A DNA stretch of 64,000 nucleotides from an uncultured Candidatus Rokubacteria bacterium (GTDB taxonomy: Bacteria > Methylomirabilota > Methylomirabilia > Rokubacteriales > CSP1-6), in NCBI GenBank assembly GCA_963762145.1, contig CAVXJS010000014.1, positions 416,001-480,000 of the forward strand, written 5' to 3'. Each line of letters begins with the position of its first letter. Within the stretch, counting starts at the first letter, position 1. Of this stretch, positions 17,200 to 60,046 are shown piece by piece. The position numbers and the translations under genes were made by a program. The notes under the pieces were generated by a model. It had not been told where the DNA came from and ran no database searches. It worked only from the letters and a program-made list of their open reading frames with translations.

Positions 17200-18987
17200 T
17201 TACGTCCGGTACCAGTAGGCGATCCGGCCGAAGATCGAGTCCCACGAGTTCAGCTCGATACCGGCCAGGTTGTTGCCGGCGGCGTGGATCACGTTGCGCA
17301 ACGTCACCGGGATCACGATCGCCTTCTGCACCACGAGGTCGTTCATCTTGATGAACAGCTCGGTCCGCTTGACCGGGTCCATCTCCACCTCGGCCCGGCG
17401 CCACAGCCGATCGTACTCCGCGTTCCGCCAGCGCACGATGTTCCGTCCCGTCCAGCCGTTCTCCTTGGTGGGCACCTCCCAGGAGACGAACTGGGCCATG
17501 AAGAGCTGCGGATCGAGGCCGGTGAACACGGTGTAGGTCTGCAGATCGGCGTGGAAGCGGACGTTGGTGTCGACGTTGTTGACGTCCGCGGCGAAGAACA
17601 CCGAGGCCGGGATCGCCTTGATCTCCATCTCGACGCCCGCGCGCGCGGCCGCCTGCTTGATCACCAGCTGGACCTTCTGCACGGTTGCGTTGGCGGCGGC
17701 CTGATAGAGTAAGCGCAGCCGCCGGCCGGCCTTGGCGCGCACCCCGTCGGCGCCGCGCACGAAGCCCGCCTGCTCCAGGATGTCGTTGGCCTTGTCGACG
17801 TTGAACTCCCAGGTCGTATTCCGCGAGCGGAAGCGATCGGGCGAGGCCAGGAAGTTGGCCGTGATCTGGCCGGTGCGGCCGACCAGGTGCTCCTGGATGG
17901 ACTCGCGGTCCACCAGCAGGCTCAGCGCGCTGCGCACCGGCTGCTCGCTCAGCAGCGGGTGGGGAGCCTTGAGGCTCGAGCGCTCGCCGTCCATCTCGCG
18001 GGCCGGATCCGTCTGGTTGCACTGGATGAAGCTCACCCCGCTGCTCGGGATCGTGAGGACGCGGCCCTTGCCGCCCTGCTCGATCCGCCGCAGGACCTCC
18101 TCCTCCACCAGCACGTAGTAGGCGAAATCGTACTCGCCGGTCTGCAGCACCGCGCGGGCCGCCCCCACCGCGTCGCCGCCGCACTTGATCTCGAGCTGGT
18201 CGAAGAACGGGCGGTTCGGCACGTGGTAGGTCTTGTTGATCTCGGCGCGGATGAAGTCGCCCGGCCGCCACTCGGCGAGCCGGTAGGGCCCGGTGCCCAC
18301 CGCGGGGATCATGCCGATGGCCTCGCGGGCGCCGGCTCCCTTGACCTTCTCGAAGAGGTGCCGCGGGAGCAGCCCGCCGCCCGTGAAAGCGGCGTCCCAG
18401 GAGGGCTGGGGCTTCTTGAAGACGAGCTTCACGGTGTGGGAGTCGATCCGCTCGATTCGCGTGATGTCCTCGTAGGCCCCGCGGGTGCCCGCGGCGGTCG
18501 AGGGGTCGATGGCGAACTCCCAGTTGAAGATCACGTCGTCGGCGGTGAACGGGGCGCCGTCGTGCCACACCACGTTGCGCTTGAGTCGCCACGTCACCCA
18601 CTGGCCGTCCTTGGACAGCGTGCCCGCCTTGAGCGAGGGAAGCTCCTGGGCCAGGACCGGCACCAGGGTGCCGTCGGCGGCGGGGGCGGCGAGGGGCTCG
18701 TAGAAGATCCGCTGGACCGTGAAGTCGCGGAGGCCGCGGCCGAAGTGGGGGTGGAGCAGGGTGGGGGCATCCCACATCAGGATGCGAAGCGTGCCGCCCC
18801 CGCCGCGCCGGGTGGGCGCGAGCTCGGCCTCGCGCGGCTGCGCGGTGGCCACGCCCGCCGCGCCCAGGAGGCGGCCGGCTACCGGACCGGCGAGGCCGGC
18901 CGCGGCGAGCGCCTGCACGAAATGTCGGCGTGTGAGGCCGCCCTGCCTCACCTGCCCCAGCATCTCCCGAAGGGTCGCTTCGTCCAT
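17200..18987 (-). CDS. Family 5 (peptide/nickel) ABC substrate-binding protein, Tat-exported, orphan
   Basis: TRRHFV twin-arginine motif; WHDGAPFTADDV and GTGPY. Confidence 0.9.
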   Translation of the reverse strand: MDEATLREMLGQVRQGGLTRRHFVQALAAAGLAGPVAGRLLGAAGVATAQPREAELAPTRRGGGGTLRILMWDAPTLLHPHFGRGLRDFTVQRIFYEPLAAPAADGTLVPVLAQELPSLKAGTLSKDGQWVTWRLKRNVVWHDGAPFTADDVIFNWEFAIDPSTAAGTRGAYEDITRIERIDSHTVKLVFKKPQPSWDAAFTGGGLLPRHLFEKVKGAGAREAIGMIPAVGTGPYRLAEWRPGDFIRAEINKTYHVPNRPFFDQLEIKCGGDAVGAARAVLQTGEYDFAYYVLVEEEVLRRIEQGGKGRVLTIPSSGVSFIQCNQTDPAREMDGERSSLKAPHPLLSEQPVRSALSLLVDRESIQEHLVGRTGQITANFLASPDRFRSRNTTWEFNVDKANDILEQAGFVRGADGVRAKAGRRLRLLYQAAANATVQKVQLVIKQAAARAGVEMEIKAIPASVFFAADVNNVDTNVRFHADLQTYTVFTGLDPQLFMAQFVSWEVPTKENGWTGRNIVRWRNAEYDRLWRRAEVEMDPVKRTELFIKMNDLVVQKAIVIPVTLRNVIHAAGNNLAGIELNSWDSIFGRIAYWYRT

Positions 18988-19121
18988 GGATTCCCGGTTG
19001 GGGGGTCCGACATCGATAGCGCGGGGCGCCGGGGAAGTCAAGGGCCCAAGTCCCTTGTCGCTCCGGAAGGAATCGGGGACAATACGGCGCCGCCCATCCG
19101 GCCCCAGGAGACCGATCGCCC

Positions 19122-20192
19122 ATGAATCTCATCTCGGAGCGCCTCGACGTCGACGATTACGACGAAGCGGTGGAGCTCTTCTATCAGCGAAACTGGACGG
19201 ACGGGCTCCCGGTCGTGCTGCCCACGCGGCGGCGGGTGGAGGCGATGATCGCGGGGGCGGGCCGAGACCCTCAGGAGAGCCTCGGCCCGGTGCCCCCCAA
19301 GGGAGGCCCCGCGACCGTCGAGAAGCTGGCGATCAACGCGGTGATGGGCGGCTGCCTGCCCGCGCACTTCCCGGTGGTGCTGGCCGCGGTGGAGGCGCTC
19401 CTCGACCCGGCCCACAATCTCAACGGGGTGAGCCAGACCACCCACATGTGCGTGCCCCTCGTCATCGTCAACGGCCCGATCGCGCGCGAGCTCGGGTTCA
19501 ACTCGCGCGACGGCGTCTTCGGCAACGGCTACCGGGCCAACGCGGCGGTGGGGCGCGCGGTGCGCCTGGCGCTGTGGAACCTGGGCGGCGCGGTGCCGTG
19601 GGATACCGACAAGGCCACGCTCTCCCATCCGGGCGAGTACGCGTTCTGCATCGCGGAGGAGGAGGAAGACAACCCGTGGCCGCCACTGCACGTCGAGCGC
19701 GGCTGCCCGCCGGGGTCCGACGCGGTGACCATCTTTGCGTGCGAGGCGCCCCACAGCGCGTTCTGCTACGGCACGCCGGAGGAGATGCTGCACGTGCTCA
19801 CCGACTCCATGTGCGGGCTCGGCAACAACAACATGCACGTCATGGGACAAATGCTGGTGGTACTGAACCCCCTCAACGCCGAGGAGTTCGCCAAGCGTGG
19901 CTGGTCCAAGACCGACGTGCGCCGCTACCTCTGGGAGCACGCGCGGCGGCCGATCGCGCAGGTGCGGGCCTGCGGGGTGGTGCACGAGCAGTTCCGGAAG
20001 ATGGAGCGCGACGCCGGCCGCTACCCGCTCCGCTACGACCTCGACAACCCGACCACCCGCGTCCCGGTCTCCGCGGAGCCGGACGACATCCACATCGTGG
20101 TCGCGGGCGGCCGCAGCTACTTCGCGGCGGTCCTGCCCGGGTGGGGCGGCTTCGGGGGCTTCGCGGTCACCCGTGCGATCCGGAGGGCCTGA
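19122..20192 (+). CDS. Conserved uncharacterised protein, partner of the UGSC selenoprotein
   Basis: 356-aa ORF with strong codon bias and AGGAG RBS; WTDGLPVVLPT, ATVEKLAINAVMGGC and NAAVGRA motifs. Confidence 0.8.
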   Translation: MNLISERLDVDDYDEAVELFYQRNWTDGLPVVLPTRRRVEAMIAGAGRDPQESLGPVPPKGGPATVEKLAINAVMGGCLPAHFPVVLAAVEALLDPAHNLNGVSQTTHMCVPLVIVNGPIARELGFNSRDGVFGNGYRANAAVGRAVRLALWNLGGAVPWDTDKATLSHPGEYAFCIAEEEEDNPWPPLHVERGCPPGSDAVTIFACEAPHSAFCYGTPEEMLHVLTDSMCGLGNNNMHVMGQMLVVLNPLNAEEFAKRGWSKTDVRRYLWEHARRPIAQVRACGVVHEQFRKMERDAGRYPLRYDLDNPTTRVPVSAEPDDIHIVVAGGRSYFAAVLPGWGGFGGFAVTRAIRRA

Positions 20193-20195
20193 GCG

Positions 20196-20705
20196 ATGGA
20201 GATCCTGAGCCCGGTCTGGCCCGAGCCCGGTGCGGGCGGCTCCACGGCCGCGCGGCCGCGCGCGCTCGCGGGGGCCACCATCGCCCTGGTGGACGACAAT
20301 CTCGACATCCCGTTCACCACCCACCTCGAGACGCTCCTGAGCCGCGAGCACGGGGCCGCGGTGCGGAGGCTCGTGAAGCCGTCCGGCACCGCGCCCTCGC
20401 CGCGCGCCCTCATCGACGAGGCCGCGGCCGCCGCGAGCGCGGCGGTGGTGGGCATCGGGCTCTGAGGCTCGTGCACGTCGGGCAGTGTGCTCGACGCCGC
20501 CGCGCTGGAGGAGCGAGGGATCCATACCGTGACGATCGTCTGGGACAACTTCGAGAACGCGGCGCGCATGCAGGCGCGCCTGCAGAACGTGCCTGACCTG
20601 GCCCTGGTGGTGATCCCTCACCGGAAGGGGGGAGAGACCGCGGAGGACCAGCGGCGCAAGGCGGAGGCCGCGCTCGCCGACGTCGTCGCGGGGCTGCTCC
20701 GGTGA
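20196..20705 (+). CDS. UGSC-family selenoprotein (Sec encoded by TGA at 20463-20465), 169 aa
   Basis: ORFs 20196-20465 and 20487-20705 are in frame; read-through gives VVGIGL-U-GSCTSGSVLDA (UxxC); SECIS-like hairpin immediately downstream. Confidence 0.9.
20476..20496 (+). promoter_or_regulatory. Putative bacterial SECIS element
   Basis: CGTCGGGCA-GTG-TGCTCGACG 9-bp stem starting 10 nt after the UGA; G-led apical loop about 20 nt from the UGA. Confidence 0.7.
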
Positions 20706-20830
20706 ACCGGCTCTCCTGGATCATGACCGCGGCGGCGGCCCTCGCCATCGCGTCGGGCAGCCTCGGGGGCTCGTCGGAGTCCGCGCTCGTGGAAGCGGTG
20801 GGGCAGGCCCTGCGGATGCTCGGGCTGTGA
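20702..20830 (+). CDS. Uncalled 42-aa hydrophobic small protein
   Basis: MNRLSWIMTAAAALAIASGSLGGSSESALVEAVGQALRMLGL; GTGA overlaps with both neighbouring genes. Confidence 0.65.
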   Translation: MNRLSWIMTAAAALAIASGSLGGSSESALVEAVGQALRMLGL

Positions 20831-21339
20831 TCGCGCGGCTCTCCTGGGCCGCCGCGCTGCTGGCCGGCATCGCCACGCTGATCATCGCGATGCTGATCTC
20901 CGCCGACGTCCTGCTCCGCTACTTCTTCAACTCGCCGCTGCTCTTCGTGGACGAGGTCGCGAGCTTTCTCCTGGTGCTGGTGATCTTCGGGGGTCTCGCC
21001 TACACCGCCCTGTGCGGCGCGCACGTGCGAGTGGACCTGGTCACCACGCACCTGCCGCCGGCGCTGCGCGCCTGGCTGCGGGCCGGCGGCCTGGTGCTGG
21101 GCATCGTCTTCATCCTCGTGGTGTCGTGGACCACGCTCCAGTCCGCGCTCACCGCCTACCGGTACGGGCGGGTGTCCACCGTCATGCTGTACCCGCTCTG
21201 GGTGCCGATGCTGCTGATCCCCGCCGGCCTCATTCTGATGAGCGCGGTGATGCTCGGCGCGCTCCGCCGGCAGGTCCGCGCCGCGCTGGGGCCGCCCGCC
21301 GGCCGCGATGAGCTGCCGCTGTCCCAGGAGCCCCGTTGA
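20827..21339 (+). CDS. dctQ: TRAP transporter small permease
   Basis: Four TM segments; DVLLRYFFN, DEVA and HVRVD motifs. Confidence 0.9.
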   Translation: MIARLSWAAALLAGIATLIIAMLISADVLLRYFFNSPLLFVDEVASFLLVLVIFGGLAYTALCGAHVRVDLVTTHLPPALRAWLRAGGLVLGIVFILVVSWTTLQSALTAYRYGRVSTVMLYPLWVPMLLIPAGLILMSAVMLGALRRQVRAALGPPAGRDELPLSQEPR

Positions 21340-22649
21340 CCGACGCCCTGCTCGGGAGCCTGCTGATCGGGCTCATGTTCCTCCTCCTGGCCCTCGGGCT
21401 CGAAGTGTCCATCGCGCTCGGGCTGGTCGGCCTGCTCGGGCTACTCTATCTCAAGGGCTTCTCGGTGGGCCTGGGCGTCATCGGATCCATCGCCTGGTCC
21501 AACGCGACCAGCTTCTCGTTCATCGCGGTGCCGCTCTTCGTGTTCATGAGCGGCATCCTGCTGCACTCGGGCATCGGCCGCGGTCTCTTCCGGGCCATGG
21601 CGCGCTGGGTCGGCTTCCTGCCCGGCGGGCTCGCGGTGGCCAGCATCTTCTCCTGCGCGGTGTTCGCGGCGGTGTCGGGCTCGAGCGTGGCCACCGCGGC
21701 GACCATCGGCATGATCGCGATCCCCGAGATGGAGCGCCGCGGCTACCGCCGCAGCGTGATCATCGGCTCGCTGGCCGCGGGAGGCACGCTCGGCATCCTG
21801 ATCCCGCCGTCGATCCCGATGATCATCTACGGCGTGATGACCGAGACCTCGGTCGGCCACCTCTACATGGCGGGGATCATCCCGGGCGTCATCCTGTCGC
21901 TGACCTTCGCCGCCTACGTGGTCGTCTACGCGATGATCTGGCCGGAGGCGGCCCCGCGCGCGGCCGAGGACCGCGGCTCCTTCGCCTCCAAGCTCGAGGG
22001 GCTCCGCGAGGTCCTCCCGGTCGCGATCCTGATCATGGTGGTGCTGGGTTCGATGTACCTGGGCATCGTCACCCCCACCGAGGCCGCGGCACTGGGCACG
22101 ATGGTGAGCCTGGTGCTCGCCTGGTGGGCCGGGACCCTCACCTGGGCGGCGATGCGGCGCGCCTTCGAGGAGACCGTGCGCACCACCGCGATGGTCATGG
22201 CCATCATCATCTTCGCGGCCATCTTCTCCCACGTCATCGCCCTGATCGGCGCGCCCCGGGCCCTGCTCGCCTACGTGGTCTCGCTCGGGCTGCCCCAGTG
22301 GGCCTTCTTCGCCGCGGTGTTCTCGTTCCTCCTCGTGGTCGCCTACGCCCTCGAGGAGCTGTCGGTGATGATCATCCTGCTGCCGATCCTGTTCCCGCTC
22401 ATCACCGGCCTGGGCTTCGACCCCGTGTGGTTCGGCATCATCATGGTGGTGTGGCTAGAGATCGGCTTCATCACGCCGCCGGTGGGGCTGAACCTCTTCG
22501 TCATCCAGGGGCTGATGCCGGGGAGCACCGCCCGCGAGGTCACGGTGGGCACCACGCCCTTCGTGATCCTGATGATCCTCATGGTGGTCCTGCTCTTCCT
22601 CTTCCCCGATCTGGCGCTCTGGCTTCCCCGCCAGATGATGGCGCGCTAG
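21336..22649 (+). CDS. dctM: TRAP transporter large permease
   Basis: AVPLF, SGSSVATAA, LIPPSI, TPTEAAA and TPPVGLNLF motifs. Confidence 0.95.
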   Translation: MTDALLGSLLIGLMFLLLALGLEVSIALGLVGLLGLLYLKGFSVGLGVIGSIAWSNATSFSFIAVPLFVFMSGILLHSGIGRGLFRAMARWVGFLPGGLAVASIFSCAVFAAVSGSSVATAATIGMIAIPEMERRGYRRSVIIGSLAAGGTLGILIPPSIPMIIYGVMTETSVGHLYMAGIIPGVILSLTFAAYVVVYAMIWPEAAPRAAEDRGSFASKLEGLREVLPVAILIMVVLGSMYLGIVTPTEAAALGTMVSLVLAWWAGTLTWAAMRRAFEETVRTTAMVMAIIIFAAIFSHVIALIGAPRALLAYVVSLGLPQWAFFAAVFSFLLVVAYALEELSVMIILLPILFPLITGLGFDPVWFGIIMVVWLEIGFITPPVGLNLFVIQGLMPGSTAREVTVGTTPFVILMILMVVLLFLFPDLALWLPRQMMAR

Positions 22650-22925: not shown

Positions 22926-24314
22926 ATGAACATCACCCACCCGTTGCTCGCTCTAGCCATCCTGATCGCGATCGCATGGCCGTCCGTTGCGGCCGGCGAA
23001 TCGCGGTCGCTCGAGGATGCTCTCTTCGAGGAGCCTCGGGTCGAGGAGCGTCCGCGCGACCTGCCTCCGTGGCTCTTCGCCTCCCGCCTCGGCCGGCCTC
23101 TGGAGGATCGCCCTCGTGAAGACTCGGGGCTGAGCGACATGAGCGCGCTGCTGCTCCGCGACCCGCCCAGCGCCCCGATCCAGTCCGATCCCCTCACCCT
23201 GCGGTCCACGGGCGAGGAGGACTCGAGCGACCTTCGCGTGCTGCTCGGCAAGGGCGAGCGCTGGCACCTGATGCGCTTCGGCGCCGCCGCCGCGTCCCGG
23301 CCTCAGGAGGCCAAGTTCACCGCCTACGGCGCCGTCGCCTACATTCCGCCGAGTCTCGGGTCCTCGCGCCCGGAGGGCGGCCTCGGCTACGGGCCGGTGG
23401 TGGCGCCGGGCGCCGCCTTCGGGCTCGGGCTCGATGAGCAGGAGGAGCCGGTCTCCCTGGGTCTCAAGGGCTCGATCAGCGACTTCGAGGGTGGCGCCGA
23501 GTACCGATCGGTCGGCAAGCGGTTCGAGCGCCTCGTGAGCGGGCCGCCGTCGCAGCGAGACCGGGAGGGCACCGAGCTCTGGGTCGCGCAGCGGCTGGGT
23601 CTCCTGCGCCTGCGGCTGACGCAATCCGAGCTGACCGACAATGTGGACCGCAACCCGGCGCTGCCCCGCACCACCCGCGCCCAGACCGCGATCAGCGCTC
23701 AGATCGACCCGCGGGGGTGGCCGATCTTCGGGTTGACCTATGCCACCGGCGATTCGGAGCGCGTGTGGCTGACCGGGGACGGCCGCCCGCGCATGACCGA
23801 GGAGCAGACCTTCGACAGCCTGTCGGGCAACGTCTACTATGGCGGGCCGCGCTGGGACGTCTCGGCCTCCTCCAGCTACATCACGAGCCGGGACGTGGCG
23901 CAGCCCGATCACACGATGGCCATGCTGTATCACGATCTGCGCCTCACGCTGCGGCCGTTCGAGTCCCTCGTCATTGCGCCGGCGGTGAGCACCGGCCTCG
24001 ACCGCTACGAATGGTCGGGCACCCGGAGCAATACGACCTCGACCTCGCTGCTGCTGTCCTACGGACCGCCCACGAGCTGGTGGAAGCTGTGGACGCTCGG
24101 CGCCTACACCGCCTCGCAGGCCAGCGACGGGACCATGGACGGACGCACCCTGAGCCTGAGCGGGGGCCTGTCGTGCGGGCTCGGGCGGCTCCTGGGCGGG
24201 CCGACCAGCCTGTCCTTCCAGGCCGGGTACGAGCGATACGACGACGCGGTGTACCGCGACGGCTCCGCGCGCGGCGTCTTCGGCCTCGTGCGCCTCAAGG
24301 TCGTCTCCTTCTAG
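22926..24314 (+). CDS. Putative outer-membrane beta-barrel protein of unknown function
   Basis: Signal peptide, alternating aromatic/hydroxyl strands, C-terminal Phe (GLVRLKVVSF). Confidence 0.6.
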   Translation: MNITHPLLALAILIAIAWPSVAAGESRSLEDALFEEPRVEERPRDLPPWLFASRLGRPLEDRPREDSGLSDMSALLLRDPPSAPIQSDPLTLRSTGEEDSSDLRVLLGKGERWHLMRFGAAAASRPQEAKFTAYGAVAYIPPSLGSSRPEGGLGYGPVVAPGAAFGLGLDEQEEPVSLGLKGSISDFEGGAEYRSVGKRFERLVSGPPSQRDREGTELWVAQRLGLLRLRLTQSELTDNVDRNPALPRTTRAQTAISAQIDPRGWPIFGLTYATGDSERVWLTGDGRPRMTEEQTFDSLSGNVYYGGPRWDVSASSSYITSRDVAQPDHTMAMLYHDLRLTLRPFESLVIAPAVSTGLDRYEWSGTRSNTTSTSLLLSYGPPTSWWKLWTLGAYTASQASDGTMDGRTLSLSGGLSCGLGRLLGGPTSLSFQAGYERYDDAVYRDGSARGVFGLVRLKVVSF

Positions 24315-27818: not shown

Positions 27819-27847
27819 TTGACATCGCCCGCCCCCCCACCTAGGGT
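27819..27847 (+). promoter_or_regulatory. Putative sigma70 promoter for the LLM gene pair
   Basis: TTGACA-N17-TAGGGT upstream of AGGAGG/ATG 27873. Confidence 0.55.
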
Positions 27848-27872
27848 GATGCCCGACTCGAAAGGAGGCCTC

Positions 27873-28868
27873 ATGGCCAAGCTCAAGTTCGGCGCCTGGA
27901 TTCCCACCTACGCGTGGAGCGGCAAGAAGACGGATCCGAAGAACATGCGGCGGATCCGCGACTCCATCGTGAAGTGCGAGAAGTACGGCATCGACGTCTG
28001 GGTGATCGACCACCTGCTGTCCGCGCCCGGCCTCTACGGCAACGCCTGGCTCGAGCCGCTCTCCTCGCTCGCCTACGCGGCGGCGCTGACCGCGAAGGTG
28101 GACATCGCCACCGGCATCCTGGTGCTGCCGGTGCGCCACCCGGTGCTGCTGGCCAAGGAGATCTCGACCCTCTGCCACCTCTCGAACAACCGCTACGTGT
28201 TCGGGGTGGGTCCCGGCTGGTACGCGCGCGAGTACGAGGTGACCGGCTCCCGCATCCAGGAGCGCGGCAAGCGCACCGACGAGATCATCGAGGCGGTGAC
28301 CCTGCTGCTCACCAAGCCGAACGCGAGCTACCACGGCAAGTTCTACCACTTCGACGACGTGACGATCGATCCGCGGCCGCCCAAGATGCCGAAGATCTGG
28401 GTTTCGGGCGGCTCGCGCGTGCCCGATCCGGGCGAGCACGACGTGCCGGTCATCGCGACCACCGTGATGGACCGCATCGTCCGAGCCGGCAACTGGCTCT
28501 CGCGCTGCTCGGGCACGCAGGAGTGGGTCAAGCGGGACTGGGGGCTGCTGCAGCAGCACTGCAAGACCCTCGGCCGCGATCCGAAGAAGCTCACGTTCGG
28601 GCACTGCAACTTCATCCACCTGGTGGACACCCCGAGCCACGCCAAGGCGGTGGCCGCGTCGAAGGCCCCCTTCATCAAGACGATGGGCACGCACCGGACC
28701 TACGAGCACCTGCAGGAGTCGTACATGATCGGGTCGATCGATCACATCAACACGCGGATCGACGATCTGGTGAAGGCGGGGCTCAAGTACCTCGTGCTGG
28801 GGCCGGTGACGGACGACCCGGCGCAGATCGACCTGATGGCCAAGAAGGTCATGCCGCACTTCAAGTAG
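27873..28868 (+). CDS. LLM class flavin-dependent oxidoreductase
   Basis: WVIDH, EP, LPVRHPVLLAK, GVGPGW and IWVSG motifs. Confidence 0.9.
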   Translation: MAKLKFGAWIPTYAWSGKKTDPKNMRRIRDSIVKCEKYGIDVWVIDHLLSAPGLYGNAWLEPLSSLAYAAALTAKVDIATGILVLPVRHPVLLAKEISTLCHLSNNRYVFGVGPGWYAREYEVTGSRIQERGKRTDEIIEAVTLLLTKPNASYHGKFYHFDDVTIDPRPPKMPKIWVSGGSRVPDPGEHDVPVIATTVMDRIVRAGNWLSRCSGTQEWVKRDWGLLQQHCKTLGRDPKKLTFGHCNFIHLVDTPSHAKAVAASKAPFIKTMGTHRTYEHLQESYMIGSIDHINTRIDDLVKAGLKYLVLGPVTDDPAQIDLMAKKVMPHFK

Positions 28869-28881
28869 AGGCGTCCCGCCC

Positions 28882-29817
28882 ATGCGCTACGGCTTCTACC
28901 TCCCCACCCGCGGCCAGACCGCGTCTCCCGAGGCGCTCGAGACCCTGCTCGCGCGCGGGGAGGCGCTCGGCTTCTCCTCGGTGGTGATCGCGGACCACAT
29001 CGTGTTTCCGGTCACGATCAAGTCGAAGTATCCGTACACCGTGAGCGGGGCGTTCCCCGGGCAGGGCGACGCGCTCGAGCAGCTCTCGCTGATGGCCTTC
29101 GTGGCGGGCAAGACGCGCACCCTGCGGCTCATCAGCAGCGTGATGATCCTGCCCCACCGCAACCCGGTGGTGACCGCCAAGATGCTCGCCACCATCGACG
29201 TGCTCTCCCGCGGGCGCGTCACGGTGGGGGTCGGGGTGGGCTGGCTGCGCGAGGAGTTCGAGGCGCTCGGCGCGCCGGATTTCGACCGGCGCGGCGCGGT
29301 GAGCGACGAGTACCTCCGCATCTTCAAGGCGCTGTGGACGCAGGATCCGGCCTCGTACCGCGGGGAGTTCTATCGGTTCGACTCGATTCGCTGCGTGCCC
29401 CATCCGGTGCAGAAGCCACACCCGCCGATCTGGATCGGCGGACACAGCAAGGCGGCGCTCCGGCGCGTGGCGCGCCTGGGCGACGGCTGGCATCCGGTCG
29501 GCGCCAATCCGGCCGCGCCGCTGCGCCCGGCCGAGATGCGCGCGCTGCTCGACGAGCTGGCCCGCCTCACCGAGGCGGAGGGGCGCGATCCCGCCGCCCT
29601 GACCATCTCCTACAAGGCGCCGATCTACGACGCGGGGCAGGGGGTGGACGGCGGCGCGGAGCGGCGGCCCTTCTCGGGGAGCCAGCAGGCCATCGCCGAC
29701 GACATCGGCACCTTCGCCGGGCTCGGGGTGAGCGAGCTGATCTTCGACTTCCGCAGCGAGAGCCTCACCGAGAGCCTCGACCGCATGTCCCGCTTCGCCC
29801 CCCTGATCCGCCCCTGA
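28882..29817 (+). CDS. LLM class (probably F420-dependent) oxidoreductase
   Basis: ADHIVFP, YPY, HRNPVVTAK, GVGWLREEF, PPIWIGG and GDGW motifs. Confidence 0.9.
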   Translation: MRYGFYLPTRGQTASPEALETLLARGEALGFSSVVIADHIVFPVTIKSKYPYTVSGAFPGQGDALEQLSLMAFVAGKTRTLRLISSVMILPHRNPVVTAKMLATIDVLSRGRVTVGVGVGWLREEFEALGAPDFDRRGAVSDEYLRIFKALWTQDPASYRGEFYRFDSIRCVPHPVQKPHPPIWIGGHSKAALRRVARLGDGWHPVGANPAAPLRPAEMRALLDELARLTEAEGRDPAALTISYKAPIYDAGQGVDGGAERRPFSGSQQAIADDIGTFAGLGVSELIFDFRSESLTESLDRMSRFAPLIRP

Positions 29818-49939: not shown

Positions 49940-50364
49940 GCCTGTTCAAGATCCTGAGCCACGTGAGCATCACCGTCACCGACGTCACCAAGGCGCGCGA
50001 GTTCTACACCGGCGTGCTGGGATTCCCGGAGATCCCGCGCCCCGCCTTCGACTTCCCGGGCATCTGGTACAGCCTGGGCGGGGACCTGCAGCTCCACATC
50101 ATCCTGAACGACCAGCTCGTGCGCCCCGCGACGGAGCGGGAGAAGATCGTGGCGCGGTATCCGCACTTCGCGCTCTGGACCGAGGACGTGGACGGGACCG
50201 CGCGGCGCATCGAGGAGCTGGGGCTGGTCTGCCGCGACGTGATCTCGGGGCCCACCGGCCTGCGTCAGCTCTTCGTCAAGGACCCGGACGGCAACATGAT
50301 CGAGTTCCTCGGGCCCAGCGCTTCCGCGGCGGCCCGGCGCATGGAGACGCCCGCGGCCCGATGA
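49936..50364 (+). CDS. VOC/glyoxalase family protein
   Basis: HVSI, FYTGVLG, QLH, HFA and DPDGNMIE motifs. Confidence 0.9.
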   Translation: MSLFKILSHVSITVTDVTKAREFYTGVLGFPEIPRPAFDFPGIWYSLGGDLQLHIILNDQLVRPATEREKIVARYPHFALWTEDVDGTARRIEELGLVCRDVISGPTGLRQLFVKDPDGNMIEFLGPSASAAARRMETPAAR

Positions 50365-51278
50365 AGATCGGCGTCAACCTCATCACGTTCGGTCCGGGCG
50401 CAAGCGAGGACGCGCTCGCGCGCTGGGCCGGCTTCGCCGAGAGCACCGGCTACCACTTCATGATGCTCGGCGACCACGTCACGATCACCTCCGACGTGCA
50501 GGGCCGGTACCCGGCGCCGTTCTACGACCCGTTCACGACCCTCGCCTGGCTCGCCGGGCTGACCCGTCGGGTGGAGCTGGGCTTCACCGTGATCGTCGTG
50601 CCGTACCGCCACCCGCTCGAGACCTCTCGCATGGTGGCCACGCTGGACCGGATCAGCGGCGGGCGGCTCATCTTCGGGGTCGGGGTGGGCTGGGCGCGGC
50701 AGGAGTTCGAGGTGCTCGGGCTGCCGTTCGAGAAGCGCGGCGCCATGACCGACGACTACCTCGCCGCGCTCAAGGCCACGTGGACCCAGGACGTGGCCAG
50801 CTACCAGGGGCGCTTCGTGTCCTTCAAGGACGTCTACACCGCGCCGCGCCCGCTGCAGCGGCCACACCCGCCGATCTGGGTGGGCGGCTCGAGCGAGGCG
50901 GCGCTCCGGCGCACCGTGCGCCACGGCGACGCGTGGCATCCGATCCGCAGCCGCATCACGTTCCTGCGCGACGAGGGCATGCCGAAGCTCCGCGCCATCG
51001 CCGAGAAGGAAGGCCGGCCCGTGCCCGCGCTCTGCCCGCGCATCCGCCTGCGCCTGACCGATTCCCCGATGCCGGAGGAGACGCGGCTGGCCGGGGAGGG
51101 GACCATCGACCAGGTGCGGCGCGACTTCGAGGCCCTCGCCAAGCTCGAGGTGCCGTACCTCTGCCTCGACACGTTCGCGGACGACGTCGAGGGCTCGCGC
51201 AATCACGAGCAGGCGTGGCGCATGCTGACCACGCTCGCGGAGCGAGCCTTCGACCTGGGGCGCCAGAGCCTGCGCTAG
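50361..51278 (+). CDS. LLM class (probably F420-dependent) oxidoreductase
   Basis: GDHV, DPF, PYRHP, GVGW and PPIWVGG motifs. Confidence 0.9.
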   Translation: MKIGVNLITFGPGASEDALARWAGFAESTGYHFMMLGDHVTITSDVQGRYPAPFYDPFTTLAWLAGLTRRVELGFTVIVVPYRHPLETSRMVATLDRISGGRLIFGVGVGWARQEFEVLGLPFEKRGAMTDDYLAALKATWTQDVASYQGRFVSFKDVYTAPRPLQRPHPPIWVGGSSEAALRRTVRHGDAWHPIRSRITFLRDEGMPKLRAIAEKEGRPVPALCPRIRLRLTDSPMPEETRLAGEGTIDQVRRDFEALAKLEVPYLCLDTFADDVEGSRNHEQAWRMLTTLAERAFDLGRQSLR

Positions 51279-51303
51279 CACCCGGCCCGCCACTAGCCTC
51301 CGA

Positions 51304-51888
51304 ATGGACGCGATCGACCTCTGGCTGCTGCGCTACGAGTCGGTCCACAGCTTCGTGGCCGACGACCTGGTCGCGGATCTGACCGAGGCGCAGGTGCGCG
51401 GGCGGCCCGTGCCCGGGGTCAACCCGGTGGCGTGGCTCATCTGGCACGCGATGCGGATCGAGGACGTGTGCGTGAACCGCTTCATCCTCGACCGGCCGCA
51501 GGTGCTCGACGCCGGCTGGCTCGAGCGGCTCCGCGTCGGACGGCGCGACGTCGGGACGGGCATGGACGACACGCAGGTGGCCGCGCTCTGCGAGCGCGTG
51601 GACATCGGCGAGCTCCGCGGCTACTGCCGCGCGGTGACGCGGGCCACGCTGGACGCGGTGCCGGCTCTGCGGGGCATGGAGCTCGAGGCGACGATCGCGG
51701 CCGACCGGGTCGAGCACGTGTCCACCGTCGAGGGCGCGGTCGATCCCGGCGCCTCCTGGCTCACCGAGTTCTGGGCCGGCGGGCGGAGCCGGGGCTGGAT
51801 CCTGTTCCAGACGTCCCTGCTCCACGTCTACGGCCACTACTTCGAGGGCCTCGCGACCAAGGGCCTCTGGGGCGCCCGCTCGCGCTAG
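51304..51888 (+). CDS. DinB family protein
   Basis: NPVAWLIWH..R.ED and C-terminal HxxxH. Confidence 0.85.
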   Translation: MDAIDLWLLRYESVHSFVADDLVADLTEAQVRGRPVPGVNPVAWLIWHAMRIEDVCVNRFILDRPQVLDAGWLERLRVGRRDVGTGMDDTQVAALCERVDIGELRGYCRAVTRATLDAVPALRGMELEATIAADRVEHVSTVEGAVDPGASWLTEFWAGGRSRGWILFQTSLLHVYGHYFEGLATKGLWGARSR

Positions 51889-52892
51889 AGGCGCGCCATC
51901 ACCTGGTCGGCGAAGAGGCGCAGCACCTGCTCGCGCTCCACGAAGTCCTGGCCGGGGACCTGCGGGAGCAGGATGACCCGGCCCACGCCGCCGACCTGCG
52001 CGATGCGCTGCACCTGCCCGCGGACGTCGTCGGGCGTCCCCGCGAGGGCCATCAGGTCGACGAAGCGGTCGGTGACGAGCAGGCGATGCTTCGACGCGGC
52101 GGTGGCGTGCTGGTAGGAATCGTACGCGGCGCGGACCTGCTCGATGACCGCCTGGTCCTCGGGGCTCCAGGTCACCGGGAACGCGTGACGGAGGGCGGAG
52201 GCGACGCGGCCGCGCACGTGGTCGCGGGCCAGCGCGCGATCGTGCGAGATCGAGGTGGGCGCCCAGATCGCGACGTCGATCGAGCCGGCGGCGCGGCCGC
52301 TCGCCTGCACGCCGCCGGCCACGCGGGCGAGCGCGGCCTCGACCAGCCACGGCGCCACGCCCGAGTACATGATCGCGCCGTCGCCGAGGCGCCCGGCCGC
52401 GTCCAGCATGCGCGGGCCGGAGCCGGCCAGGTAGAGCGGGACGTCGAGCGGGCGGGGCAGCCAGGCCAGGCGCGCGTCGGTGCCGGTGTCGAGCCGGATC
52501 GACTCGCCGCGCAGGAGGCGCTTGAGCGCGTGCGCCATGGACTCGAGCGTGGCGACGCGGGCGGTCCGGGCCACCGACAGCCCCATGGTCTCCGACGCGC
52601 TGCCGCCGGTGCCGATGCCGAGGACCAGGCGCCCGGGCGCCAGCTCGTGGAGGGACGCGATGGCGCTCGCGGTCACCGAGATGTGGCGCGTGTGCGGTAC
52701 GGTGATCCCGGGGCCCAGCCGGATCCGCGAGGTCGCGGCCGCGCACGCGGTCAGCACGACCCACAGCTCACGGCAGACCAGGTGGGTGTCGGCGATCCAG
52801 GCGGTGTCGAAGCCGAGCGTCTCGGCCAGCCGCACCTGCTTGACGATCACGGGCAGCGGCTGGCTGGCGAGGATGCCGATGTCGAACTTCAT
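51885..52892 (-). CDS. LLM class flavin-dependent oxidoreductase (Mer-like)
   Basis: AETLGFDTAWIAD, TRH, LGIGTG and AGSGPRML motifs. Confidence 0.9.
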   Translation of the reverse strand: MKFDIGILASQPLPVIVKQVRLAETLGFDTAWIADTHLVCRELWVVLTACAAATSRIRLGPGITVPHTRHISVTASAIASLHELAPGRLVLGIGTGGSASETMGLSVARTARVATLESMAHALKRLLRGESIRLDTGTDARLAWLPRPLDVPLYLAGSGPRMLDAAGRLGDGAIMYSGVAPWLVEAALARVAGGVQASGRAAGSIDVAIWAPTSISHDRALARDHVRGRVASALRHAFPVTWSPEDQAVIEQVRAAYDSYQHATAASKHRLLVTDRFVDLMALAGTPDDVRGQVQRIAQVGGVGRVILLPQVPGQDFVEREQVLRLFADQVMARL

Positions 52893-52950
52893 GGACGCGG
52901 CTGAGAATCGGGCCAAAGGCCCGGCGCGTCAAGGGGTAAGCTAGGGACCC

Positions 52951-59170: not shown

Positions 59171-60046
59171 ATGGCGACCATCACGGGCCCGCTCACGGTC
59201 TCGCCCGTTCACCCCACCTTCGGGGCCCTGATCTCCGGAGTGGATCTGACCCAGCCGCTCGACGCGGCCACCTTCGACCGTATCGCGGTGGCGTTCGACG
59301 ACTACTCGGTGCTGGTCTTCCGCGATCAGGCGCTGAGCGACGCGGAGCAGATGGCTTTCAGCGAGCGCTGGGGCCCGCTCGAAACCACCGTGCGGACCAT
59401 GGGGGGCGAGGACCGGCTGGGGGCCCACATCGTGGATCTCTCCAACACCGACGCCAACGGCGAGCTGATGGGCTGGGACGACCGCCGCATGCAGTATCAG
59501 TCCGGCAACCAGCTCTGGCACAGCGACAGCTCGTTCAAGCCGGTGCCCGCCCACTCCTCGGCGCTCTCCGCGCGCGTGGTGCCGCCCGAGGGCGGCGAGA
59601 CCGAGTTCGCGAGCATGCGCCTTGCGTACGAGACGCTCGACGAGAACGTACGCCGCGACCTGGATCGGCTCGTGGTCGTGCACAGCTTCGGCTTCTCGCG
59701 CAGCCTGATCGATCCGGGCATCGGCACCGAGATCGGGCGCGACTACCCGCCGGTGCGTCACGCCCTGGTGCGCGCCAACCCGCGCAACGGGCGCAAGTCG
59801 CTCTACATCGGCTCGCACGCCTGGTACATCGAAGGGATGGGGCTCGACGAGAGCCGCATCCTCATCGCCAGGCTGCTCGAGCACACCGTACGCGCCGACC
59901 GGGTCTACCGGCACCGCTGGCAGGTGGGCGACCTCGTGATGTGGGACAACCGGTGCGCGCTGCACCGGGGCCGCCTCTGGGACAGCGCGCGCTACGAGCG
60001 CGTCATGCACCGCACCACGGTGGCGGGCGACGGGCCGACCGTGTAG
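59171..60046 (+). CDS. TauD/TfdA family Fe(II)/2OG dioxygenase
   Basis: GVDL, WHSDSS (HxD), GGETEF and WDNRCALH motifs. Confidence 0.93.
   Translation: MATITGPLTVSPVHPTFGALISGVDLTQPLDAATFDRIAVAFDDYSVLVFRDQALSDAEQMAFSERWGPLETTVRTMGGEDRLGAHIVDLSNTDANGELMGWDDRRMQYQSGNQLWHSDSSFKPVPAHSSALSARVVPPEGGETEFASMRLAYETLDENVRRDLDRLVVVHSFGFSRSLIDPGIGTEIGRDYPPVRHALVRANPRNGRKSLYIGSHAWYIEGMGLDESRILIARLLEHTVRADRVYRHRWQVGDLVMWDNRCALHRGRLWDSARYERVMHRTTVAGDGPTV

Follow-up and report, generated by a model that had tools for sequence, protein, structure and literature searches.

The operon studied here lies in a 64,000-nt stretch of DNA (the window; positions 416,001 to 480,000 of contig CAVXJS010000014.1, or C14) from an uncultured Candidatus Rokubacteria bacterium. 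It begins with the gene for X356, a protein of 356 amino acids (aa), which is followed by a gene for a selenoprotein of the UGSC family and, further downstream, by genes for the two membrane subunits of a tripartite ATP-independent periplasmic (TRAP) transporter. In the reading that we favor, with a probability of roughly 0.6, X356 and UGSC are the two parts of a selenium-dependent redox enzyme, probably linked to thioredoxin, which acts on a carboxylate imported by the TRAP transporter, while dctP, the gene for the transporter's binding protein, has moved elsewhere in the genome. This reading is carried by the pairing and natural fusions of the two proteins, the decoding of an in-frame TGA as selenocysteine (Sec), the conserved linkage to TRAP genes and the relocation of dctP; from these we infer a physical complex, dependence on thioredoxin, a reductase chemistry and the kind of substrate.

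According to this model, UGSC would be a flavodoxin-like α/β domain that presents Sec90 (in U-G-S-C93) at the start of a helix, and X356 would be the larger, substrate-holding part with its conserved residues C78 and C176. The oxidized enzyme would probably be re-reduced by a thioredoxin-type system. Since the enzyme would be co-transcribed with a TRAP importer in the orthologous group, the most likely substrate is a carboxylate that enters through DctPQM. The dctP gene would have left the operon in the lineage of the window, the remaining 42-codon frame would couple translation from the UGSC gene into dctQ, and the binding protein would be supplied from another contig (C21). The operon has the following features:

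19122..20192, plus strand: X356 (gene 1), 356-aa partner of UGSC corresponding to the 'Unknown_1' domain (open reading frame (ORF) listing and translation)
20196..20705, plus strand: UGSC-family selenoprotein (gene 2), 169 aa, Sec90 in GL-U-GSC, read through the TGA
20463..20465, plus strand: in-frame TGA decoded as Sec
20476..20496, plus strand: hairpin resembling a Sec insertion sequence (SECIS), 9-bp stem, GUG loop, starting 10 nt past the UGA
20702..20830, plus strand: 42-codon frame at the position of dctP in relatives, N-terminus signal-peptide-like; probably a remnant or a translational coupler
20827..21339, plus strand: DctQ, small membrane subunit of the TRAP transporter (gene 4), PF04290
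21336..22649, plus strand: DctM, large membrane subunit of the TRAP transporter (gene 5), PF06808

The five frames are co-directional and, as an earlier note on this DNA had read from the sequence, tightly spaced: gene 1 is followed by a 3-nt gap, and the next three junctions are overlaps of 4 nt each. Codon usage, scored after training on the genome, calls all five, the 42-codon frame being a marginal call (score 19). A σ70 promoter scan found no site, and terminator-like sites were not above those of shuffled sequences. In what follows, G000 denotes the genome of the window (25 contigs, 88% complete), other G numbers related genomes, L numbers loci, P numbers representatives of database clusters and C numbers contigs.

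The UGSC selenoprotein gene

Gene 2 matches the Pfam family PF24696 (UGSC) with 116.4 bits at a gathering score of 25. Against the NCBIfam model NF041046 it reaches 83.3 bits, which is below the equivalog cut-off of 125, and we therefore regard it, on its profile scores, as belonging to a divergent, TRAP-linked subgroup of UGSC proteins. The same family was found in all 41 related genomes searched, with 1 to 13 matches per genome and one TGA each among the matches listed.

Comparative evidence identifies gene 2 as a genuine selenoprotein gene. The TGA occupies the same alignment column in 22 of 23 genes, the 23rd (ortholog L039) having the Cys codon TGT, and the residue at position +3 (C93) is Cys in all 23, that is, in the 22 Sec forms and in L039. 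The window and 15 orthologs share the sequence of the hairpin downstream of the TGA, except for changes in the loop or from G-C to G-U. In the paralogs L010, L011a and L012, compensatory changes on both arms preserve the pairing (GUCGUGCAG/GCACGAC; GUCGUGGAG/CCACGAC), and in the Cys-codon ortholog L039 the hairpin is missing from the minimum free energy structure. G000 also encodes tRNA-Sec, SelB, SelA and two SelD proteins. One of the selD genes (G000:C11:419505-420437) has an in-frame TGA of its own and encodes a selenoprotein SelD; the other (G000 C14:136744-137655) has none.

Two observations would suit a reading in which the TGA is an ordinary stop and gene 2 represents two small genes or a pseudogene: translation table 11 splits the frame into ORFs of 89 and 72 aa, and the fold energy of the hairpin region is not better than that of shuffled sequences (z 0.00). 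This reading is hardly conceivable given the shared TGA column with its single Cys codon, the compensatory changes in the hairpin combined with a full set of Sec machinery, the PF24696 match that spans the TGA (residues 3-167), and a ratio of nonsynonymous to synonymous substitution rates (dN/dS) of 0.12-0.21 over the entire frame.

The family itself is not new. In Table 2 of an ocean survey, UGSC ranks fifth by number among 51 selenoprotein families, with 255 selenoprotein sequences, and the survey gives it as the most frequent family in non-marine samples (PMC2398784). A 2026 review lists it with the uncharacterized selenoproteins (PMC13188914), and a full-text literature search retrieved no paper on UGSC function.

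X356 and its pairing with UGSC

X356 had been described in the earlier note as unassignable, and indeed it matches no Pfam or NCBIfam family at E<=0.01. Sequence searches of the PDB with X356 and UGSC gave nothing below E 0.03, and a search of the ESM Atlas gave unnamed clusters only. The family is nevertheless very large: 5380 cluster representatives match at E<=0.001 (1307 at E<=1e-30), yet no family model exists for it. The three Cys motifs pointed out previously are all present, but only one of them holds a conserved Cys: among 72 aligned homologs, C78 of AVMGGC is kept in 71, the Cys of CEAPH in 20 and that of MCG in 4. A further Cys that had been overlooked, C176 in YAFCIAEEE, is conserved in 68 of 72. 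The conserved residues of the family are D27-G-L-P30, P34-T35, C78, R138, N140, G144-R145, C176, E179, W186 and G329-G330, and dN/dS of X356 is 0.05-0.10.

The partner has nonetheless been in print since 2008, when a 'UGSC/Unknown_1' fusion was shown without an assigned function (Zhang and Gladyshev 2008, PMC2398784, Fig. S1A). The 'Unknown_1' motif block of that figure (A-x-N-x-V-M-A-G-C-x-P-E-Y ... V-N-G-P) is present in X356 around C78 (AINAVMGGCLPAHFPVV...VIVNGP); on this match, made by eye against the printed alignment and not by a computed alignment, X356 is the 'Unknown_1' domain. Both the family and the fusion thus being known, the pair is not entirely undescribed, as the earlier note had thought likely. 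The operon differs from the printed fusion in that separate genes encode the two parts, X356 preceding UGSC, and their translation is coupled. Six proteins of ~710 aa (P0132, P0153, P0182, P0188, P0205 and P0214) match X356 in two or three stretches and have no Pfam family, which suggests tandem X356-X356 proteins.

The proposal that genes 1 and 2 form a functional pair is supported by their adjacency, by natural fusions in both orders and by purifying selection. G000 has eight UGSC genes, each with one in-frame TGA, and eight X356 paralogs, which are 33-43% identical to the X356 of the window; by tblastn and profile search all eight pairs are adjacent. In a set of 25 orthologous loci, taken from public genomes with the labels Rokubacteria/Methylomirabilota and Betaproteobacteria, UGSC adjoins X356 in 24, and the remaining locus stops at a contig edge. 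In five further genomes, 28 of 29 UGSC matches adjoin X356, and 28 of 32 X356 loci adjoin UGSC.

Half of the eight pairs in G000 are fused. Where UGSC comes first the pair forms a single frame (L014, L011a, L012 and the frameshifted L009), and where X356 comes first the genes are separate. Intact UGSC-X356 fusions with one in-frame TGA each lie at G000:C19:51839-53467 (L014:9274-10986, minus strand), G000:C11:389027-390610 (L011:3512-5116) and G000:C7:194740-196296 (L012). The copy at G000:C14:370098-371656 (L009:8341-10926, minus strand) is split into several frames by pseudogene formation or assembly indels, and DHDPS-family, beta-lactamase-like, PIG-L and ABC_sub_bind genes follow downstream. 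Fusions were also sought among 36 long X356 representatives, which were chosen by length, their counts being no frequencies. PF24696 is present at the N-terminus in 15 of the 17 tested representatives of 530-570 aa. Four representatives of ~460 aa have the reverse order, X356 being followed by the N-terminal half of UGSC and the protein ending where the TGA would be.

Structure prediction is consistent with such a pair. The natural Cys-type fusion P0160, modelled with an 82-row alignment, reached a predicted local distance difference test score (pLDDT) of 92.9 and a predicted template modelling score (pTM) of 0.94 over 561 residues, which fits a fixed interface between the two domains. Its UGSC domain is modelled as a β-α-β-α-β-α-β-α sandwich in which a helix begins at the Sec position. 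The Foldseek rows for this domain comprise flavodoxin-like domains, lumazine synthase and GH3 C-domains, with no thioredoxin-fold entry among the matches listed. The 2008 paper proposed a thioredoxin-like fold for UGSC (PMC2398784); by contrast, the best matches of the modelled domain are flavodoxin-like. X356 alone was predicted with a pLDDT of 95.1 and a pTM of 0.94. Its best Foldseek rows are cyclic amide hydrolases and a class I fumarate hydratase, and VIA-align gave partial matches on residues ~208-345 to encapsulin, chorismate mutase, PrpD-like proteins and YjgF (Z 4.6-6.9). The C-terminal domain of X356 resembles common chorismate-mutase/YjgF-like sandwiches. These matches, all of them weak and partial, were not taken as signs of kinship.

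The TRAP transporter and the position of dctP

DctQ (PF04290, E 2.9e-25) and DctM (PF06808, E 1.5e-89; TIGR00786, 336.7 bits at a cut-off of 268.45) are canonical subunits of a DctPQM transporter, from which the operon differs in that dctP lies outside it. The absence of this gene from operon and window, as first read from the sequence, is confirmed: tblastn with two DctP orthologs matched contig C14 only at 95133-95945, outside 416001-480000, and PF03480 had no match among the 40 window ORFs scanned.

The postulated coupling to an organic-acid importer finds support in the orthologous loci. Genes for DctQ and/or DctM lie beside the pair in 18 of the 25, and two of the other seven loci stop at a contig edge. 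In 13 loci a gene of 335-369 codons for DctP is located between UGSC and dctQ (PF03480, E 1.1e-53 for that of L036). The dctPQM genes are divergently upstream in L033, a 71-aa DctP fragment without permease is present in L030, and the transporter has been lost in L018. Judged by this distribution, the TRAP linkage is ancestral in the orthologous group; neither the co-occurrence of genes 1 and 2 nor their association with TRAP genes is peculiar to this genome.

Four genomes were tested for DctP orthologs at E<=1e-40, and each has exactly one. It is located beside UGSC in G045 and G041, and on another contig in G000 (C21:877403-878449) and G044. The G000 gene lies between two Peripla_BP_6 genes and its product (PF03480, E 5.4e-51) is 81% identical to the in-operon DctP of L036 and 94% identical to that of G044. 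On the strength of this single ortholog elsewhere in G000, dctP has therefore been relocated, not lost. Purifying selection still acts on DctQ and DctM (dN/dS 0.10-0.43), and most likely the transporter is completed in trans. A luciferase-like gene beside the relocated dctP was considered as an ortholog of the gene upstream of X356 in L036 and rejected at 38% identity.

The place of dctP is taken by the 42-codon frame in the window and its three closest relatives (L015-L017) only. In these four genomes the frame is intact, of equal length and start/stop-coupled, and residues 1-17 and the C-terminus are conserved. These features would favor a fuller version of the idea in the earlier note, a five-gene system in which the 42-aa protein has a function and the TRAP permease works without any DctP. 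Such a system is very improbable in view of the near-neutral evolution of the frame (dN/dS 0.37-1.15, compared with 0.15-0.43 for DctQ, 0.10-0.15 for DctM and 0.05-0.43 for the neighbors altogether), its absence from the other 21 orthologous loci, 13 of which carry the full-size dctP in its stead, and the retained dctP ortholog of G000. The lack of an adjacent dctP is better seen as the trace of a recent relocation than as a feature of the system. A comparison of the 42-aa sequence with the ends of DctP was not significant (85 of 2000 shuffles reached the score of the N-terminal half and 576 of 2000 that of the C-terminal half), and blastn found no DctP remnant. Most likely the frame is a leftover kept for translational coupling, the term 'remnant' resting on its position only.

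A binding protein that can be expressed and screened for ligands, tied through the TRAP importer to the X356-UGSC pair, makes the operon of the window a practical entry point, and this tie is its most useful feature: the ligand of DctP would for the first time name a candidate substrate for a UGSC pair. The closest solved relatives of the G000 DctP are 2pfy (E 2.3e-35) and 2pfz (E 9.6e-34), which we take to be DctP7 and DctP6 of Bordetella, respectively; the similarity is moderate. DctP6 and DctP7 of Bordetella pertussis were reported to be solved with 5-oxoproline (PMC13274462). By analogy, this compound may be considered as a ligand of the DctP in the lineage of the window, but only as a lead.

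Function of the pair and its genomic surroundings

Glycine reductase operons (grd) encode thioredoxin and its reductase, and the Sec of Grd attacks a substrate that is held by a partner subunit. The earlier note had compared the pair of the window with glycine and D-proline reductases (Grd and Prd), and this comparison finds support for one partner: profiles reveal a distant similarity between the core of UGSC and the Sec domain of GrdB-like proteins, whereas X356 has no similarity to the GrdB-like profile (hhalign probability 0.1%). With three GrdB-like rows, hhalign aligned UGSC to the Sec domain with 65.4% probability (E 5.9e-5), Sec on Sec. A 105-row UGSC profile gave 87.3% (E 3.8e-6), again Sec on Sec, against six GrdB/PrdB-like C-domains, the profiles on the GrdB side being thin. 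None of 40 column shuffles exceeded 1%, and a reversed control gave 0.2%. With GrdB-like rows that stop where the Pfam match stops, and so lack the Sec region, the probability was 2.75%. As in GrdB and PrdB, the Sec of UGSC belongs to a U-x-x-C motif that comes behind a hydrophobic strand and leads into a helix and then a strand with E-x-x-G-I-P-x-V. The profile comparison lends moderate support to the view that UGSC is related, as a free-standing protein, to the Sec domain of selenoprotein B.

There are also clear differences. UGSC has 170 aa compared with ~435 aa for GrdB, and PF07355, the GrdB family model, matches neither gene 2 at E<=0.01 nor four natural UGSC fusions at E<=10. X356 matches no Pfam family and is not recognizable as GrdE/PrdA. 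No family of the pyruvoyl proprotein GrdE/PrdA, of GrdA or of GrdC/D was found with Pfam or NCBIfam in the operon or in any of the 40 window ORFs scanned. The host lineage, labelled Rokubacteria/Methylomirabilota, is not one of Stickland fermenters. Because the similarity is present in the UGSC core and absent from X356, the likeness to Grd and Prd may concern a possible working mode and not family membership.

Related genomes encode GrdB-family proteins (PF07355) in which the end of the model is followed by T-U-G-S-C or U-G-T-G, a helix and E-x-x-G-I-P-V. Full-length genes of this kind are present in Methylomirabilota-type genomes (L042:1228-2532, minus strand; L043:1501-2805; L041:146-1465); L042 and L043 share the Sec motif T-U-G-S-C, L041 has T-U-G-T-G at this place, and PF07355 stops one residue before the Sec. 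G000 itself has a small PrdB-like selenoprotein gene (C8:71668-72084 and downstream) with an in-frame TGA in T-U-P-F-C; its match to the GRDB model is confined to the C-terminal part of that model (32 bits), and it has orthologs in L045 and L046.

A link to thioredoxin is indicated mainly by fusions of X356 to redox domains, namely to thioredoxin reductase (TrxR; P0211), to the beta subunit of ferredoxin-thioredoxin reductase (FTR-beta; P0135 and P0147) and to an AhpC/TSA-like domain with CxxC (P0218), since a TrxR-like gene neighbors the pair in only two of 15 annotated loci. In the betaproteobacterial loci L033, L035 and L032 the pair follows selB and/or a TrxR-like gene; the latter is directly upstream in L032 and L033 and scores 202 and 193 bits with TIGR01292, below the cut-off of 343.

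Several observations weigh against a two-part, thioredoxin-linked enzyme acting on a TRAP-imported substrate. Besides the scarcity of TrxR-like neighbors, the window operon has no reductase gene, and the redox-domain fusions amount to four of the 36 long representatives, which were selected by length. Four of the 32 X356 loci in the five further genomes have no adjoining UGSC, and X356 is without a clear structural relative (Foldseek template modelling scores 0.19-0.31; best VIA-align Z 6.9 over 83 residues). Of 82 Cys-type fusions, 63 have Ser at position +3 and only 15 have Cys, and a simple U/C-x-x-C redox couple is thus, by this alignment, not universal. Because the Cys at the Sec position is kept in 77 of the same 82, the essential residue of UGSC appears to be the first (Sec/Cys) position, and its partner thiol may come from X356.

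The surroundings of the other pairs also limit what the transporter can reveal. A survey of gene neighborhoods confirmed a near-constant pairing of X356 and UGSC, but TRAP genes accompany only one of the eight pairs in G000, where they are a local addition to the pair. The other seven have as neighbors a Liv-type ABC transporter; an MFS transporter; an alpha/beta hydrolase, an M20 peptidase and GNAT; an FGGY kinase and EamA; IclR and SIS; an amidase, DUF4387 and AtuA; or DHDPS-family, beta-lactamase-like and PIG-L genes. The TRAP substrate therefore says nothing on the family as a whole.

This variety of neighbors, together with the fusions to an AhpC/TSA-like redoxin, TrxR and FTR-beta, could also be expected if the pair were a general module for thiol/selenol redox maintenance or detoxification, of the peroxidase or disulfide-reductase type, and the proximity of a transporter incidental; most prokaryotic selenoproteins are, according to the ocean survey, thiol oxidoreductase-like (PMC2398784). 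We consider this rather unlikely, because eight diverged paralogous pairs, each in a catabolic or transport context of its own, are better explained by substrate-specific enzymes, and because the TRAP linkage with translational coupling is kept across Methylomirabilota-labelled and betaproteobacterial loci. The two nearly invariant Cys of X356 with its conserved Arg, Asn and Glu could alternatively serve a cofactor-independent isomerase or racemase in which C78 and C176 act as acid-base pair and UGSC merely keeps the cysteines reduced; amino-acid transporters, amidases, a DHDPS-family enzyme and a DAO flavoprotein among the neighbors would agree with this. A dedicated, often fused Sec protein would however be a costly protection of thiols, UGSC conserves its first Cys/Sec as would be expected of a catalytic residue (77/82 fusions; Sec or Cys in 23/23 genes), and neither Foldseek nor VIA-align found a fold match to known racemases, all of which makes such an activity quite improbable.

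Going beyond the two-part redox enzyme as such, it is tempting to speculate that the pair represents a new class of thioredoxin-driven selenoenzymes which act like D-proline reductase with an unrelated substrate-holding subunit. Sec90 would attack a carbon of a cyclic or N-substituted amino-acid-like carboxylate, held by X356 (in this orthologous group something like 5-oxoproline imported by the TRAP transporter), and bring about reductive C-N cleavage; an electrophilic cofactor might even be generated by X356 itself, at the invariant Gly-Cys78. This more specific chemistry is distinctly unlikely as it stands. If true, the paralogous pairs would form a large unrecognized family of enzymes for reductive cleavage of C-N (or C-S) bonds in aerobic soil and water bacteria.

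Other genes near the operon were recorded as well. An orphan family-5 ABC binding protein with a twin-arginine-like leader and without adjoining permease genes is encoded divergently at 17200-19041 (minus strand) and is kept at the same place only in L015-L018. In L031, L036 and L037, X356 instead has upstream genes for an IclR regulator and an F420-type luciferase-like oxidoreductase, and these are confined to one subclade. The window is also rich in genes for luciferase-like oxidoreductases, for a TauD-family dioxygenase, for amidases and for numerous ABC binding proteins (27846-29817, 50361-52916 and 59171-60046), which have no demonstrated link to the operon. Downstream of dctM, the window encodes a secreted protein of 462 aa (22926-24314) without Pfam or NCBIfam family, which has a beta-barrel-like end (...KVVSF); its ortholog in L018 (74% identity) follows directly after UGSC, where the TRAP genes have been lost.

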